From a phage: a stretch of 64,000 nucleotides of DNA. Position 1 is the stretch's first letter; each line of letters begins with the position of its first letter. Positions 20,615 to 34,692 of the stretch are shown here, one piece after another. The stretch lies in the NCBI GenBank assembly GCA_024674815.1, contig GCA_024674815.1_4104.1; one strand, written 5' to 3'. The translations under genes were made by a program, and so were the position numbers. The notes under the pieces were generated by a model that worked only from the letters and a program-made list of their open reading frames with translations, searched no databases and was not told the origin of the DNA.

Positions 20615-21724
20615 ATGTTACCTTTTGTTAGAATGATGAATTATGGGAACGTAGCACCTGTACCCAAAAAAATAAAGAAAGTTATTGCAGGATATGATAA
20701 TTTATATGTACTATATGGTGATGGATCGCTATATGGTTGTGGAATCAATAACTATCAACAGTTAAATATTACTGGAACTACTACACAAAATAAATGGGTA
20801 CTGATTACAAATGGCGTTAATAATGCATGGGCTGGTGGATATAATATTTTATATTTTAAAGAAGATAAATTTATAATGCACGGAACTAATGTCTCATTAG
20901 GTTTAGGAAATAATACAATTCCACTAGGTGGAGTAGATGTAACTTCTTCATTTCCAGATATATCTGATATTAAAATGATATCCATTGGTTTTGATTCAAT
21001 GCACTATGTTAGTGCTGATGGTAAAATTGTATATGGAAGAGGTATGAACACAAATGGTTCTGTTGGTTCAGGTAGTACTTACTCACAGAGTACTTTTACT
21101 TCAGTACTGAATAATGGCACTAATCAGGTTATTGATATATTTGGTAACGTTAATAATACAGTGCTTCTAACGTCAAATGGCGAGCTTCGTGCGTGTGGTA
21201 CAAGTGCTTATGGTTCCATAGGAAATGAAACTGGTAAGTGGACATCGTTTGGTTTAAAATTATCTGGCACTAAAATAATGGGTGGTAATGCGTATAGTAC
21301 GCTTGCATATACAAATGCGGGAATGTACCACACAGGGTGGCAGTTAAATGGGGAACTGGGAAATGGTTTAGATACTAACGTACAGGTATATCCATTTCAA
21401 TTTAACTCTAAAACAATAGATAGCAAGATAGATAAAATTGCTAAATCATCATCTGGGTCATATGTTAATATGTACTCAACAACAGAAGGAAAGATATATA
21501 CTACAGGTGCATATGGTAAAAACGGCTCAACTACTGCATTGAATTTGTTCACCAATACACTAACACTTGAAAATTACAATCCAGATGCCGCAGCGTTGTA
21601 TACGTGCACAAACTTCAGTGTTGTATATGATGGTAATGAAACTATTGCTGTAAGTGGTAGTCCTACATATGTACCAGGTGACGTTGCCGCAAATAGATGG
21701 ACCACAATTCCATTACCCAAGTAA
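20615..21724 (+). CDS. RCC1-like repeat beta-propeller protein, MLPF-tag paralog R1
   Basis: ATG after AAGGAGGG SD; MLPFVRMMNYGN; ~7 repeats of G-x-N-x-x-G-QLG-x-G type. Confidence 0.7.
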   Translation: MLPFVRMMNYGNVAPVPKKIKKVIAGYDNLYVLYGDGSLYGCGINNYQQLNITGTTTQNKWVLITNGVNNAWAGGYNILYFKEDKFIMHGTNVSLGLGNNTIPLGGVDVTSSFPDISDIKMISIGFDSMHYVSADGKIVYGRGMNTNGSVGSGSTYSQSTFTSVLNNGTNQVIDIFGNVNNTVLLTSNGELRACGTSAYGSIGNETGKWTSFGLKLSGTKIMGGNAYSTLAYTNAGMYHTGWQLNGELGNGLDTNVQVYPFQFNSKTIDSKIDKIAKSSSGSYVNMYSTTEGKIYTTGAYGKNGSTTALNLFTNTLTLENYNPDAAALYTCTNFSVVYDGNETIAVSGSPTYVPGDVAANRWTTIPLPK

Positions 21725-21730
21725 TACGAT

Positions 21731-21760
21731 GCCAGTACTTGATACTGGCTTTCTTATTTG
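21731..21760 (+). terminator. intrinsic terminator of intergenic cassette
   Basis: GCCAGUACuugaUACUGGC + U-rich tract; followed by TATAAT and AGGAGG. Confidence 0.55.
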
Positions 21761-21793
21761 TATTAAATATAGTATAATGATAAAGGAGGAACT

Positions 21794-22972
21794 ATGTTAC
21801 CTTTTGGAAGAATGTTGAATTATGGAAATGAAGCACCGGGCGTACCAACACCAAAAGATTTCTTTTTGGATGTATCATCCGGCAAACCTACTATGTTGAT
21901 GCTTTTGGATAACGGCGAAGTATGGGGTTGTAGTAATGATGGACAACTATTAGGTTTAAACACTACCGCGTCAGCATACGGTAAGCCATACTTTGTTATG
22001 GAAAATGTTAAGTTAATGTTCGCGTCAGTGTGGGGGACATTACTTATCACTAACGATAATAAAGTGAAGTACACTGGTAGACAAACCATGTTTAATGGTT
22101 CATCTAATTATTGGAGTACTTTTCAAGATTTTACAACGAAGTACACGACTGTTGGTATTGACATAAGTACTATAGAAAAAGTTGGATTCAATACTGGTAC
22201 ATTATTCCTACGCACAACTAATGGTGATTTATGGGGTCATGGAAATAACGCTAATGGTTATTTCGGAAAAGGAAATACCGTGGCGAATTACACACCAACC
22301 AAGATCAAGACTAATACATTAGATTTTTGGTTAACTAATGGGAATGCAATTGTACAAACTGGCCCTAAAGAATTCTATGCTACTGGTGATAATTATTATT
22401 ATCAAATGGGTGTTACGACTACTGGTAATATAACAACATGGACACAGATTTTTAAGGACGCTACTGATGATCCTGAGTTTGAATATAATGCAATGCGAAC
22501 AAGTCAAGCAACATTAATACTTTACGGTAAAGGAACTACATTCTACGCAAGTGGGAGAAACTATATGAGTTCATGGGGTGTATCTGGAGCACCAGTGGAT
22601 GTTAATACTACACTATATAAAGGTACGTTACCATTTGTACCCGGGGATTTAACATATTTTTATGCTGGTCGAGAACAAGCATATTGGACTAACTTAATCA
22701 TTGATACTAATGGAGTTCTGTACATATCTGGAACAAAAGATGGGGGTGGTGGTTCAAATGCACCTATATTTGAAGTATTACCAACCCCAAGTAGTGCAGT
22801 TGGATTCAAATGTGGTACAGCAACACGTTCTTATGCTATAATGGATTGTACTGGCAATCAATTTATGTACGCACGTGGTACAGCTTTGTCAGACCCTGCT
22901 GGCTTTACACCAATGAGTACACCATTAAATCATACATGGACACACATAACAGATTTTAAATTTAACCGATAA
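21794..22972 (+). CDS. RCC1-like repeat protein, MLPF-tag paralog R2
   Basis: MLPFGRMLNYGN; RCC1-like repeats. Confidence 0.7.
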   Translation: MLPFGRMLNYGNEAPGVPTPKDFFLDVSSGKPTMLMLLDNGEVWGCSNDGQLLGLNTTASAYGKPYFVMENVKLMFASVWGTLLITNDNKVKYTGRQTMFNGSSNYWSTFQDFTTKYTTVGIDISTIEKVGFNTGTLFLRTTNGDLWGHGNNANGYFGKGNTVANYTPTKIKTNTLDFWLTNGNAIVQTGPKEFYATGDNYYYQMGVTTTGNITTWTQIFKDATDDPEFEYNAMRTSQATLILYGKGTTFYASGRNYMSSWGVSGAPVDVNTTLYKGTLPFVPGDLTYFYAGREQAYWTNLIIDTNGVLYISGTKDGGGGSNAPIFEVLPTPSSAVGFKCGTATRSYAIMDCTGNQFMYARGTALSDPAGFTPMSTPLNHTWTHITDFKFNR

Positions 22973-22978
22973 TATTAT

Positions 22979-32287: not shown

Positions 32288-32297
32288 AGGAGGGAAT

Positions 32298-33467
32298 ATG
32301 TTACCTTTTGGAAGAATGTTAAAGTACGGAAATATTAAACCAACTCTTCCTGAAATAAAGAAATTGGATGGTAGTCAATTACATGTCGGATTACTTTATA
32401 GTACAGGGAATATGTACATGCGTGGTTCTGGTTCGAACTATAAATTAGGTACAGGGGATGCTAGTGATGTATTAGGTGGTTGGGTACATGTACCCTATGA
32501 AGTTGATGATTTTTGGGCGTGTGTATCCGGTACATTAATAAAGACTGTTGATAATAAGTTATATTGTGCCGGACTATACATGGGTGGATATTTTGGGGCT
32601 AGTGGTTCATATGTTAACTGGACTGAAGTAACTTCATTATTTGTAGGTATTGACGTGTCGCAAATAAAGAATATAGAATTTACGTCAGCAGGTACGTCAG
32701 GTAGTACACTAATATTGATGTTAGATGGTCGTTTATATGGGTTCGGTATGAACAGTAGATCTGAGTTAGGTGTTAATAACAAAGTTGTATCTCCCATTCT
32801 TATAGATACTGGGGTAAGTGAAATAGGAGCACATAAGTTAGGCGGTTCATCGTTCCATTATATAAAAGGCGGTAAGTACTACAGATGTGGAACATCGGTT
32901 GGTAGTAATATTGGAAGTTCTTCTTTAACTACTTTTACTGTATTGAATATTTCTGATAACGTTATATCTATGCAAATTTTATATGACAACGTACAGTTAT
33001 TATGTTTAGGAAGTTCTGGATATAGTATCTATATGGCTGGTTCTAATGATTATGGTGGAAGAGGTGTTGGTGGTTCTACTGTTTACACTACATTCAGGAA
33101 AATAGATCTTACAGGATTTGGTGTTGTTCCCAGTGAAATACTATTTGAAAATGCCGGAAATGGTTATGTTAATATATCAACTGATAGTACTGGAGTATAT
33201 ACATGTGGTGGTGGAGCGGGTGTTAACGGTTTAGGTAGACCAACTAATGTAATACCAAGTTCACAGTTGGGGGTAGTTCAGTTCAGTACTGGAGTAGAAC
33301 AATCAAATATAAGTCGTGTGTATTCACAGAGTTCGAGTTCTGTTATATATTGTATAGTCAATAATGAATTGTACTGGGCTGGTAGTAATTCATATTTTAC
33401 TGATCAAACCACAAATACTGGTACACAATTTTCATTTATTAAAATGAAGGATATGCCTTCTGCTTAG
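32298..33467 (+). CDS. RCC1-like repeat protein, MLPF-tag paralog R11
   Basis: MLPFGRMLKYGN after AAGGAGGG. Confidence 0.7.
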   Translation: MLPFGRMLKYGNIKPTLPEIKKLDGSQLHVGLLYSTGNMYMRGSGSNYKLGTGDASDVLGGWVHVPYEVDDFWACVSGTLIKTVDNKLYCAGLYMGGYFGASGSYVNWTEVTSLFVGIDVSQIKNIEFTSAGTSGSTLILMLDGRLYGFGMNSRSELGVNNKVVSPILIDTGVSEIGAHKLGGSSFHYIKGGKYYRCGTSVGSNIGSSSLTTFTVLNISDNVISMQILYDNVQLLCLGSSGYSIYMAGSNDYGGRGVGGSTVYTTFRKIDLTGFGVVPSEILFENAGNGYVNISTDSTGVYTCGGGAGVNGLGRPTNVIPSSQLGVVQFSTGVEQSNISRVYSQSSSSVIYCIVNNELYWAGSNSYFTDQTTNTGTQFSFIKMKDMPSA

Positions 33468-33473
33468 ATTTTA

Positions 33474-33501
33474 TGCCAGTGCCTTGTACTGGCATTTTTT
33501 T
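33474..33501 (+). terminator. intrinsic terminator of cassette
   Basis: UGCCAGUgccuuguACUGGCA + U7. Confidence 0.55.
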
Positions 33502-33539
33502 GTCCTAAATATAATAACGATTTACATTTGGAGGATACA

Positions 33540-34692
33540 ATGCTACCCTTTGGAAGAATTATCACATCATCAAAAAAGAACATACAACCTTCTGTTACAA
33601 AAATAGCTTCATCTGATACAACAGTTTTTGCCCTTATGTCAGATGGTACGTTGTACAGTAGAGGCTCTCAAGAGTTTGGGCAAATGGGTATAGGTAATAT
33701 TATAACACAAACCAAATGGGTTTTGTGCAATACAAACGTAGAAGATCTATGGGTTCGGGTATGAGTCAACATTAATTAAAAAGAAAGATAATACGATGTG
33801 GTATGCTGGAAATGGTGCATCATTCGGTTTATCAACTGATAAGTCAACAACGTGGGCTTCTGCAAAGATAGTGTTTGATAGAATAACAGCACTTGGAAAA
33901 ACAATAAAACAAATTGCAGTTAGTGCAGGTGCATTAAGCGTATTATGTACAGACAACACGATATGGAATACGGGTTATGGTAGTTATGGACAACTGGGAA
34001 ATGGTAGAAGTACCGATTCACTTTCATCATTTGTACAAGGAACAGTACCTACTGGAGTAACACCATCCAAAATACTGGCAAATTTTCTTATGCAAGGATT
34101 TATTGGAACCGATGGGAGATTGTATTATACTGGTGCAATATCAGGCGTAGGTACAACCGACATGACGTTATATTCAAAGTACACGTTATGTTCTCAAATA
34201 ACTAATACCTATACGGTGAAAGATTATACAACAAACTCAAGTTACTTCGCTTTTGCTATAGCAAGTAATAATAGTACTAATAAATTATTTGCATATCATG
34301 GTGGTGGACAATACTTTGGTCAGTTAGCAAATGGTTCTACATCACAAACATATATTTCGTTAAGACAAACAACACAAGCACCAGGTGATATAATAAGAAG
34401 CAGTGTGGGTTATTCATATTTTTCTAATCATATTATAACTTCATTAGGTGTTTACGCAACTGGTTATAACACAGGCGATAACGCAGGTCAATTAGGTATA
34501 GGTACACAAACAGATGTCTCAGCCTATACCAAATGTGTACTACCAATAGAGATGAATATGAATAACGTATATGTTACAGCAACTTTATACAGAACTTACT
34601 TAACCGATGGTATACAAATTTACAGTACTGGACAATATATTACAGACGGTGGAGTTGCCAGTACTGTATTTGTCAAAGATTCACCATTTTAG
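33540..34692 (+). pseudogene. frameshifted MLPF-tag RCC1-like paralog R12
   Basis: ORFs 33528-33764 and 33796-34692 join with a single-nt shift near 33745-33752 (G-run); divergent N-term MLPFGRI. Confidence 0.5.

Follow-up and report, generated by a model that had tools for sequence, protein, structure and literature searches.

A conserved N-terminal peptide of tandem RCC1-like genes in a jumbo phage recurs on unrelated virion-associated domains in related genera

RCC1-like genes have been described in multiple copies in jumbo phages of the 121Q type. Buttimer 2017 recorded such copies in 121Q (genes 234-238, 240-242, and 244-248) and PBECO4 and listed the GAP32 homolog, gp001, as a virion protein (PMC5259590). 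Wagemans 2020 reported eleven RCC1-like proteins in phAPEC6, eight of which were detected in virions by mass spectrometry (MS), and speculated on a role in DNA organization (PMC7247149). In GenBank, the genes of these relatives are labeled “regulator of chromosome condensation” or “putative DNA condensation protein.” Here, we analyzed a stretch of phage DNA of 64,000 nucleotides (NCBI GenBank assembly GCA_024674815.1, contig GCA_024674815.1_4104.1; hereafter, the window), in which positions 20615-34692 of the + strand hold an array of twelve consecutive genes, every product of which opens with MLPF. The region is 90 to 98% identical, patchwise, to 37 Escherichia and Salmonella jumbo phages (121Q/PBECO4 group, Asteriusvirus, Rak2-like). 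The array and its virion association are already known, as a feature of Asteriusvirus mislabeled by its fold name; an earlier note, made from the letters of the window alone, had recognized no described phage system in the arrangement and is corrected on this point by the two reports and the GenBank annotation. What appears to be new is the shared N-terminus itself (here, the tag), a short, disordered, clade-restricted peptide carried by unrelated virion-associated binding domains. No description of this shared N-terminus was found in the literature searched, including the Iyer 2021 review of jumbo phages.

The T4 capsid-targeting sequence (CTS) of IPI, IPII, IPIII, and Alt is likewise a conserved N-terminal address of about 10 residues and the sole common feature of diverse virion-packaged proteins (PMC3012670). 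Both sets of proteins evolve fast and are encoded in a variable locus. The two systems differ in three respects. (i) The T4 CTS is followed by a gp21 protease site, at which cleavage occurs, whereas no such site follows the MLPF tag; a T4-like CTS with a protease site was therefore rejected as a model for the tag, (L/I)xE being absent after most MLPF tags. (ii) The T4 internal proteins are small and lie inside the head, whereas the MLPF proteins have propeller, lectin, and adhesin folds of 17 to 75 kDa, for which a place outside is favored. (iii) The T4 sequence is MKTYQEFIAE, to which MLPFxRMxKYGN shows no resemblance. The adenovirus fiber tail motif and the encapsulin cargo-loading peptides are also short terminal peptides, which plug variable heads or cargo into one capsid-protein site; they belong to unrelated sequences and systems and are mechanistic analogies only.

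A second array with shared N-termini and divergent heads lies near one sequence end of RaK2 (Alcyoneusvirus, Rak2-like clade), where gp526-534 are arranged in tandem (tailspike/depolymerase genes at 28455-49683 of locus L030). The products of the tailspike/depolymerase array of K64-1 are reportedly external receptor-binding proteins. The RaK2 heads are large trimeric beta-helix enzymes of 570 to 1100 amino acids (aa), whereas the MLPF bodies are monomer-type binding domains of 170 to 400 aa. The N-termini differ as well: gp526, gp527, gp529, and gp530 begin with M.N.LIQPKGSVSKETN and not with MLPF, and gp531-534 begin with MSLSNLSSSN..(I/L)(N/D)(S/Y)G.F, gp531 having a 4-residue N-terminal extension. 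No MLPF open reading frame (ORF) was found in the final 50 kb of RaK2, which is the part that was scanned.

A near-constant peptide on divergent bodies

A degenerate DNA pattern for M-L-P-F-x5-Y-G (ATGYTNCCNTTY-N15-TAYGG) has 11 matches in the window, every one inside the array, against 0 expected from 100 shuffles. Twelve consecutive plus-strand MLPF genes are confirmed, as the earlier note had it (start positions in Table 1). In eleven of them, M1, L2, P3, F4, R6, M7, Y10, G11, and N12 are present without exception, while pairwise identity among the bodies is only 18 to 33%, so that the reported contrast between strongly diverged bodies and a near-invariant N-terminus holds. The statement that all genes begin MLPF(G/A/V)R(M/I)..YGN is true of these eleven and fails for gene 12, whose tag, MLPFGRIITSS, lacks YGN. 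This tag belongs to a second conserved subtype (MLPFPIISNT..) known from other genera and retained in Serratia BF, fHe-Yen9-04, and XbC2; judged by these counterparts, the gene 12 N-terminus represents another subtype of the tag rather than a degenerate version of subtype A.

The array comprises ten intact RCC1-like propellers, one frameshift-split RCC1-like gene, and one glycine-rich protein. Of the 13 translated pieces, 12 contain RCC1-like repeats according to Pfam searches, and only the glycine-rich protein has none. PF25390 matches 12 of the 13 (best 1e-30), and RCC1 and RCC1_2 (PF00415 and PF13540) were found in 9 pieces each. In member 1, PF25390 scores 82 bits, which is under its 150-bit whole-domain cutoff, and RCC1_2 scores 41.9 bits against a cutoff of 22. 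One RCC1-like member, paralog 5, was modeled as a monomer with AlphaFold2. The model is a propeller (predicted local distance difference test [pLDDT], 89.1; predicted template modeling score, 0.87), and Foldseek matched it to UVR8 (E value, 6.5e-22; TM, 0.75) as well as to RPGR, RCC1, and HERC2, all of which are seven-bladed propellers. The earlier assignment of eleven RCC1-type bodies is upheld by these results. Eukaryotic RCC1, UVR8, RPGR, and HERC domains share the seven-bladed propeller and the GxxGQLG-like repeats with the array proteins, at 14 to 18% identity to eukaryotic RCC1-type propellers; the array proteins differ in adding the N-terminal tag and give no indication of Ran guanine nucleotide exchange or chromatin binding.

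Paralog 7 (245 aa), the glycine-rich member without an RCC1 Pfam match, had rightly been set apart from the propellers. In a second AlphaFold2 monomer model, it is predicted to consist of a beta-sandwich followed by a glycine-rich lattice domain, as in tail-fiber adhesin tips. Sequence homology to the tips of Pam3 (gp24), S16 (gp38), and Bxb1 (gp33) is not detectable in paralog 7, and a profile of 37 homologs found no match in the PDB at E values up to 1. In Pam3, the part that is TNF-like plus glycine-rich binds the receptor and a separate N-terminal domain docks the fiber to the baseplate (PMC9608196). Whereas Pam3 gp24 has a trimeric alpha-helical docking domain and a chaperone, paralog 7 has just the 12-residue tag in the place of a docking domain of this type, and no chaperone gene is evident beside it.

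The tag is the sole low-confidence segment in both AlphaFold models, with pLDDT below 50 across residues 1-13 in paralog 5 and averaging 48 across residues 1-10 in paralog 7. As modeled, it behaves as a free linear motif, outside the fold. A role as a “velcro” strand that closes the propeller is ruled out by the low confidence of residues 1-13 and by the presence of the tag on nonpropeller bodies.

The earlier note had suggested related phages as a place to look for the tag, and there it was found. The first homolog search with paralog 5 gave 13 matches, tblastn against phage genomes reached further, and the tblastn alignments of the paralogs to distant Rak2-like phages begin at residue 1. The carriers are Kaldavass, XbC2, GAP32, CBB, Serratia BF, Yersinia fHe-Yen9-04, and four uncultivated genomes, with carrier genera among the phages of Erwinia, Xanthomonas, Cronobacter, Pectobacterium, Serratia, and Yersinia. 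Erwinia phage Kaldavass has eight consecutive genes beginning MLPFP(Q/I/R)(L/I/M)xxYGN (three of the eight not RCC1-like). Xanthomonas phage XbC2 carries the tag on four genes, of which two encode Laminin_G_3 domains, and GAP32 carries it on two. CBB has at least 11 (CBB_144, 247, 536, 537, and 548-554), with Kelch, LamG, and glycine-rich bodies. Two of the CBB genes are solitary: CBB_144, located between nrdD and nrdG, and CBB_247, which adjoins endonuclease VII. Array homogenization therefore cannot explain the tag of CBB_144. The tagged bodies are of the RCC1, Kelch, RCC1-Kelch fusion, Laminin_G_3, and glycine-rich types, and they also include families 169 and about 210 aa in length; no Pfam family was found for the glycine-rich member, the 169-aa body, or CBB_144. 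The tag unites at least four unrelated body families in one functional class.

In the loci analyzed, 84 nonredundant MLPF-start ORFs (at least 60 aa) sort into two classes. Subtype A (66 ORFs) has the consensus M-L-P-F-x-x-(M/L/I)-x-x-Y-G-N (MLPFxxΦxxYGN), with Y10 in 66/66, G11 in 64, and N12 in 64; subtype B (18 ORFs) reads MLPFPIIS(N/Q/H)T. When 2.9 million viral contigs were searched with exact DNA patterns for both subtypes, every match lay on a contig of 348 to 378 kb. A profile built from residues 1-30 retrieved 64 clusters among 1.84 billion representative proteins, with matches nearly always starting at residue 1 and with further Kelch-like and LamG bodies among them. Between genera, the tag codons vary synonymously (CCA/CCT/CCG/CCC, TTT/TTC, TAY, GGN, and AAY), and the CBB tags do so within one genome. 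Given this variation in CBB and the other genera, the tag codons cannot be universally constrained at the RNA or DNA level. Because the peptide is conserved across genera despite the codon change, selection on the tag peptide is upheld.

A parallel N-terminal class, M-x-E-(M/L)-(M/L)-x-x-G, exists in Vequintavirinae and in the 212-kb Serratia phage PCH45 on the same three body families (RCC1-like, glycine-rich, and LamG “DIDF”). Examples are MLEMLNLG on three tandem RCC1-like genes of UPEC06 (L021, 3797-7295), MNEMLMLG of CR3_255 (L026, 2995-3645), MLESMLAG of PCH45 (L027, 2971-3633), and MFEMMLATS of PVP-SE1 gp19 (L028, 2998-3840), and many glycine-rich homologs have an MLELL or MIELLAISG N-terminus. 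Since two lineages pair their own tags with the same three bodies, the N-terminus can be argued to be a lineage-matched adaptor. This rV5-like parallel tag suggests that the principle extends beyond the Rak2-like clade.

Virion association and the likely address

Tagged proteins are strongly overrepresented in virions. MS detected 9 of the 11 tagged CBB proteins, compared with 55 of 554 proteins overall (Fisher p = 2.4e-8), and the six MS-detected CBB proteins without a GAP32 homolog are all tagged (6/6). CBB_144, the only homolog of paralog 7 known from virions, is present in them with 34% coverage. The CBB authors expected whisker genes to be among those absent from GAP32 (PMC5259590). Four array members have MS-detected counterparts in phAPEC6: paralog 5 is 99.7% identical to gp003, paralog 8 is orthologous to gp005 (85% aa identity), paralog 9 to gp006, and paralog 11 to gp010 (98% aa identity). 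The orthologs of paralogs 3, 6, and 7 fall into gaps of the phAPEC6 annotation and so are not scorable in its proteome table; in the GenBank record, the array genes at 2363-3505, 5992-7716, and 7325-8056 are unannotated or miscalled.

Conservation of the peptide across genera, its presence on unrelated bodies, its predicted disorder, and its association with virions support the view, already put forward in the earlier note, that the shared N-terminus of the array behaves as a module for targeting or anchoring, attached to diversified heads. The tag is very probably an address for virion incorporation. The fuller proposal, that this virion address includes the external display of exchangeable heads, has in our estimate a probability of roughly 0.55. 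According to this proposal, the twelve products would be virion-associated accessory proteins of two modules each. The first module, present on all members as subtype A or B, would be the disordered N-terminal address peptide, which most likely folds upon binding a single receptor site, shared by all members, in one of the structural proteins of Rak2-like jumbo phages. The second would be an exchangeable ligand-binding body, represented in the array by the propellers and one TNF-like/glycine-rich adhesin-type domain and in sister genera also by Kelch propellers and LamG lectin-like domains. The display site may lie outside the particle, on the tail, the baseplate, or the hair-like fibers that phAPEC6, 121Q, and CBB are known to have; there, the heads would form a multivalent collection of modules for adhesion or host-surface binding that is reshuffled quickly. 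A host-interaction arsenal, as first suspected, is thus plausible. The ratio of nonsynonymous to synonymous substitutions (dN/dS) between orthologs is 0.04 to 0.31; the bodies are therefore under purifying selection, without a gene-wide sign of positive selection.

An external location is favored over an internal one for five reasons: (i) judging from the name of their Pfam family, the LamG bodies are members of the concanavalin A-like lectin/glucanase superfamily; (ii) the paralogs are rich in N, S, T, G, and Y (42 to 49%) and not basic (about 6% K+R; isoelectric point [pI], 5.6 to 8.2); (iii) all six MS-detected CBB proteins unmatched in GAP32 are tagged; (iv) the sister genus RaK2 has a tailspike array with its own shared N-termini; and (v) the Pam3 counterpart to paralog 7's TNF-like plus glycine-rich part recognizes the receptor.

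Several points weigh against the proposal. Tagged proteins exist in GAP32, yet whiskers have not been reported for this phage, and MS of whole virions cannot separate the outside of the particle from the inside. Typical fiber anchors are folded trimeric domains, and a disordered tag of 12 residues on monomeric globular proteins resembles cargo-loading signals, such as the T4 CTS and encapsulin targeting peptides, more than such anchors. The likeness of paralog 7 to Pam3 is structural only, with a low Foldseek TM-score, and phAPEC6 is reported to have an inner body of undefined composition (PMC7247149). The invariance of MLPF in the census is partly circular, as the ORF scan required M-(L/I)-P-F, and the census covers parts of the other genomes. 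As for the promoter-like boxes described below, a sigma-70 consensus scan showed no enrichment (73 matches against 76.4 expected).

The main rival, which we regard as unlikely but serious, is that the tag is a capsid-targeting or cargo-loading signal and that the bodies are packaged inside the head. MLPF would then bind to the scaffolding core, or else to the inside of the capsid, while the prohead assembles, and the bodies, possibly residing in the inner body, would be injected with the DNA as diverse host- or defense-binding proteins. The precedent is T4, in which IPI-III and Alt combine a short conserved N-terminal peptide with diverse bodies in a variable locus (PMC3012670), and the shortness and disorder of the tag, the monomeric protein-binding folds (RCC1 and Kelch), the modest coverage of the proteins in virions, the undefined proteins of the phAPEC6 inner body, and a gene content that turns over quickly between close relatives, like that of arms-race loci, all fit such a role. 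However, 67 of the 84 tagged ORFs have no (L/I)xE site of the T4 protease type within 30 residues, and the same holds for 10 of the distinct window ORFs, of which 11 were counted (paralog 7 being identical to the 121Q copy). The glycine-rich member is predicted to fold like external tail-fiber tips, the LamG bodies have their lectin/glucanase affiliation, and the proteins are neutral and K/R-poor. Closed seven-bladed propellers of about 40 kDa would presumably have to unfold to pass the tail tube.

It is improbable that the tag serves instead as an assembly or polymerization signal, for example, by donor-strand insertion that builds the hairs, or as a recognition peptide for a chaperone or modifying enzyme. 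The alternating hydrophobic residues of the disordered tag (L2, F4, M/L/I7, and Y10) would suit strand insertion, no protein has been assigned to the hairs of phAPEC6 or to those of CBB (about 119 nm), and many distinct tagged proteins occur in one virion. On the other hand, the propeller, the lectin sandwich, and the glycine-rich lattice would each need an acceptor, with no common feature beyond the tag, and at the loci examined, the arrays have no linked gene for a chaperone or an enzyme.

It is very unlikely that the annotation is correct and that the proteins organize the packaged 350-kb genome. The RCC1-like fold, the presence in virions, and the speculation of Wagemans 2020 agree with it, but the name derives from the fold only, and RCC1-like propellers are generic interaction scaffolds (UVR8, RPGR, and HERC2 being the best matches). 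A pI of 5.6 to 8.2 and a K+R content of about 6% argue against bulk DNA binding, and the same tag and loci carry Kelch, LamG, and fiber-tip bodies that have no link to DNA. Moreover, CBB lacks a homolog of the RCC1-like GAP32 gp001 (PMC5259590), although the genome to be packaged is similar; our tblastn search with paralog 5 likewise found no match in CBB.

A wider generalization of the display proposal is tentative at best. Large myoviruses may possess a general “plug-and-display” system, in which lineage-specific peptides of about 12 residues dock freely exchangeable lectin, propeller, and adhesin heads at one common receptor site outside the virion, perhaps on the hair-like fibers, and in which the address codons would double as a recombination joint for head swaps between phages. 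If so, the binding modules would give each particle a coat of mixed composition that evolves rapidly, and jumbo phages would offer experimenters a minimal tag for display. If docking holds, the tag could also become a handle for the display of foreign proteins on jumbo phage particles, and it would help annotators to recognize accessory genes for host binding. For a decade, the RCC1-like genes of 121Q-type phages have been labeled “DNA condensation” on the fold name alone, and the proteins of the hair-like appendages of these phages are still without assignment; the tag makes both problems experimentally approachable.

Junction cassettes and gene exchange

Eight of the 11 junctions between array genes are cassettes of 69 to 72 nucleotides (nt), in which a hairpin (GCCAGTACTTGATACTGGC) with a T-run is followed by a box (TAAATATAGTATAATGA) and a Shine-Dalgarno sequence (SD). 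The remaining three measure just 8 to 12 nt and have no cassette, genes 4 and 5, for example, being 12 nt apart. The box pattern TAAATATANTATAATGA has 9 matches, each upstream of an array gene, against 0.59 expected, and terminator-like sites number 18 against 6.5 expected, with a hairpin and T-run at 8 junctions. Within the window, box and hairpin are essentially array specific. A copy of the array hairpin with 3 mismatches lies on the minus strand at 12145-12163, and a relative of the hairpin (AATCCAGTACTTGATAGTACTGGATT) with a T-run is found downstream of the array at 35347-35372, between the ORFs 34673-35335 and 35377-35748. In sequence, the box is similar to TATAAT and to ATAAATA, a late motif that has been reported for CBB and GAP32, and we infer that TAAATATAGTATAAT is a candidate promoter.

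Promoter-terminator cassettes that mediate modular gene shuffling are known from T4-type phages as PeSLs (promoter early stem-loops) (Arbiol 2010, PMC2839356; Comeau 2014, PMC4122927). PeSLs and the array cassettes have in common a repeated terminator and promoter motif beside variable genes and a role as sites of homologous recombination. PeSLs are reported to carry early promoters. Unlike a PeSL, the repeat of the array does not stop at the regulatory motifs but takes in the SD and codons 1-12, and thus it also encodes a peptide.

The uniformity of the cassettes extends into the coding sequence. Codons 1-7 of the eleven subtype-A genes show 95% nucleotide identity, and the synonymous sites of codons 2, 3, 4, and 6 are invariant in all eleven (P of about 1e-14 under body codon usage); TAC, GGG, and AAG, which are rare in the bodies, are shared among the tags. 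The earlier note had named identity that reaches into synonymous sites and the 5' cassette as a mark of pure gene conversion, and within this genome such identity is what we found; the case for selection on the peptide is rescued by the comparison with other genera only. The nucleotide identity of the tags within the genome, together with the traveling cassette, reflects concerted evolution and cassette shuffling, and sequence comparison across genera places this concerted evolution on top of deep purifying selection on the tag peptide.

The least probable explanation, that the shared N-terminus is a functionless by-product of gene conversion or duplication of the 5' cassette reaching 36 nt into the coding sequence, would account for the identity of codons 2-4, 6, and 7 in the 11 genes, for the codons rare in bodies, and for the near-identical cassettes at 8 junctions, but it is already contradicted by the cross-genus sequence data, since other genera hold the peptide with different codons and different upstream sequence, the CBB tags vary synonymously, the three genes without a cassette retain the tag, variable residues 5 and 8 sit between invariant codons, and the tag occurs on unrelated bodies and dispersed single genes and is associated with virion incorporation.

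Comparisons with close relatives show the genomes to diverge at the junctions as well. The comparison with phAPEC6 yields one collinear block, from the gene 2/3 junction (22973) to the stop of gene 9 (31135), and the blocks shared with 121Q begin at junctions (22973 and 26603) and finish 43 nt into the next gene, just beyond the tag. Identity to relatives at the amino acid level shifts gene by gene, from about 100% to 85%. In these alignments, breakpoints between related genomes coincide with junction cassettes. Most genes would thus be independent units, composed of a terminator hairpin, a promoter-like box, an SD, and the tag codons. About 110 near-identical bases per unit would be held uniform by recombination, and the same bases would be the sites at which whole genes are swapped between related phages. 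The tag cassette offers an explanation for the differing gene content of this locus among near-identical phages.

Gene models and neighboring genes

The coordinates of the array genes and cassettes are given in Table 1. ORF sizes of 245 to 418 aa had been listed previously; the ORFs of genes 1, 6, and 10 (375, 418, and 382 aa) overrun the true start, which is the MLPF Met, and gene 12 is split by a frameshift. The three ORFs begin upstream of that Met and were judged too long because an SD precedes it.

Table 1. Genes and intergenic elements of the MLPF array in the window
Feature	Coordinates	Strand	Description
Promoter-like box and SD 5' of gene 1	20584..20614	+	Box TAAATATGATATAATGA and SD; no upstream hairpin
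Paralog 1	20615..21724	+	MLPFVRMMNYGN tag, RCC1-like propeller, 369 aa
Junction cassette	21725..21793	+	Hairpin GCCAGTACTTGATACTGGC with T-run, box TAAATATAGTATAATGA, SD
Paralog 2	21794..22972	+	MLPFGRMLNYGN tag, RCC1-like propeller, 392 aa
Junction cassette	22973..23043	+	Hairpin/T-run, box, SD; phAPEC6 and 121Q homology block begins
Paralog 3	23044..24153	+	MLPFARMVKYGN tag, RCC1-like propeller, 369 aa
Junction cassette	24154..24224	+	Hairpin/T-run, box, SD
Paralog 4	24225..25421	+	MLPFGRMIKYGN tag, RCC1-like propeller, 398 aa
Paralog 5	25434..26603	+	MLPFGRMIKYGN tag, RCC1-like propeller, 389 aa
Junction cassette	26604..26673	+	One-mismatch hairpin, box, SD; 121Q homology block begins
Paralog 6	26674..27864	+	MLPFVRMFDYGN tag, RCC1-like propeller, 396 aa counted from the MLPF Met
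Junction cassette	27865..27936	+	Hairpin/T-run, box, SD
Paralog 7	27937..28674	+	MLPFGRMVKYGN tag, TNF-like beta-sandwich and glycine-rich domain (predicted), 245 aa, not RCC1
Junction cassette	28675..28746	+	Hairpin/T-run, box, SD
Paralog 8	28747..29889	+	MLPFARMVKYGN tag, RCC1-like propeller, 380 aa
Junction cassette	29890..29960	+	Hairpin/T-run, box, SD
Paralog 9	29961..31136	+	MLPFARMVKYGN tag, RCC1-like propeller, 391 aa
Paralog 10	31145..32287	+	MLPFARMIQYGN tag, RCC1-like propeller, 380 aa; 8 nt 3' of gene 9
Paralog 11	32298..33467	+	MLPFGRMLKYGN tag, RCC1-like propeller, 389 aa; 10 nt 3' of gene 10
Junction cassette 5' of gene 12	33468..33539	+	Hairpin ATGCCAGTGCCTTGTACTGGCAT with T7, diverged AT-rich box, SD GGAGGA
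Paralog 12	33540..34692	+	Subtype-B tag MLPFGRIITSS, RCC1-like body, split 33540-33764 / 33796-34692

The split of gene 12 is a +1 frameshift caused by an additional G in TGGG near 33750 (region 33745-33800), and the downstream ORF of 298 aa starts with its own ATG. The same split exists in 121Q (genes 234/235), PBECO4, slurp01, E9.1, and SHEFM2K, which rules out a sequencing error, and the frameshift is retained at 96 to 99.8% identity in at least 10 related phage records. Because it is found in 121Q, PBECO4, and other isolates, the split is regarded as inherited.

Relationships to phAPEC6 and 121Q differ along the array. The nearest phAPEC6 paralog of paralog 1 is gp009 (62% aa identity; dN/dS, 0.27), paralog 3 has about 100% aa identity to its phAPEC6 ortholog, dN/dS is 0.17 for paralog 6, and paralog 7 is identical to its 121Q copy. 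In the array comparison, counterparts of paralogs 2 and 10 are absent from both phages. Within the glycine-rich gene, a valine-rich ORF of 102 aa (28325-28633, + strand) is not a gene but an artifact of an alternative reading frame in GGN-rich coding DNA.

A second tandem family, divergent from the array and immediately upstream of it, occupies positions 15709-20512 of the minus strand. It consists of 21 back-to-back ORFs of 59 to 81 aa with the pattern M(N/H)xxKEFY...(V/I)L.LI..Y; 39 BLASTP pairs have E values below 1e-3 and group into clusters of 13 and 6. The stretch 14000-15700 is free of ORFs longer than about 60 aa, no tRNA gene is found anywhere in the window, and the GC skew flips its sign near 16000, at the switch of the coding strand. 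On the other side, a short distance downstream of the array, the minus strand has a run of seven ORFs for hydrophobic products of about 105 to 140 aa (35377-37816), which show no pairwise similarity by BLASTP. An equivalent run of “membrane protein” genes flanks the tagged clusters of Kaldavass (L001, 13263-16554) and CBB (L022, 18095-20171), and the neighborhood of the array is therefore syntenic.

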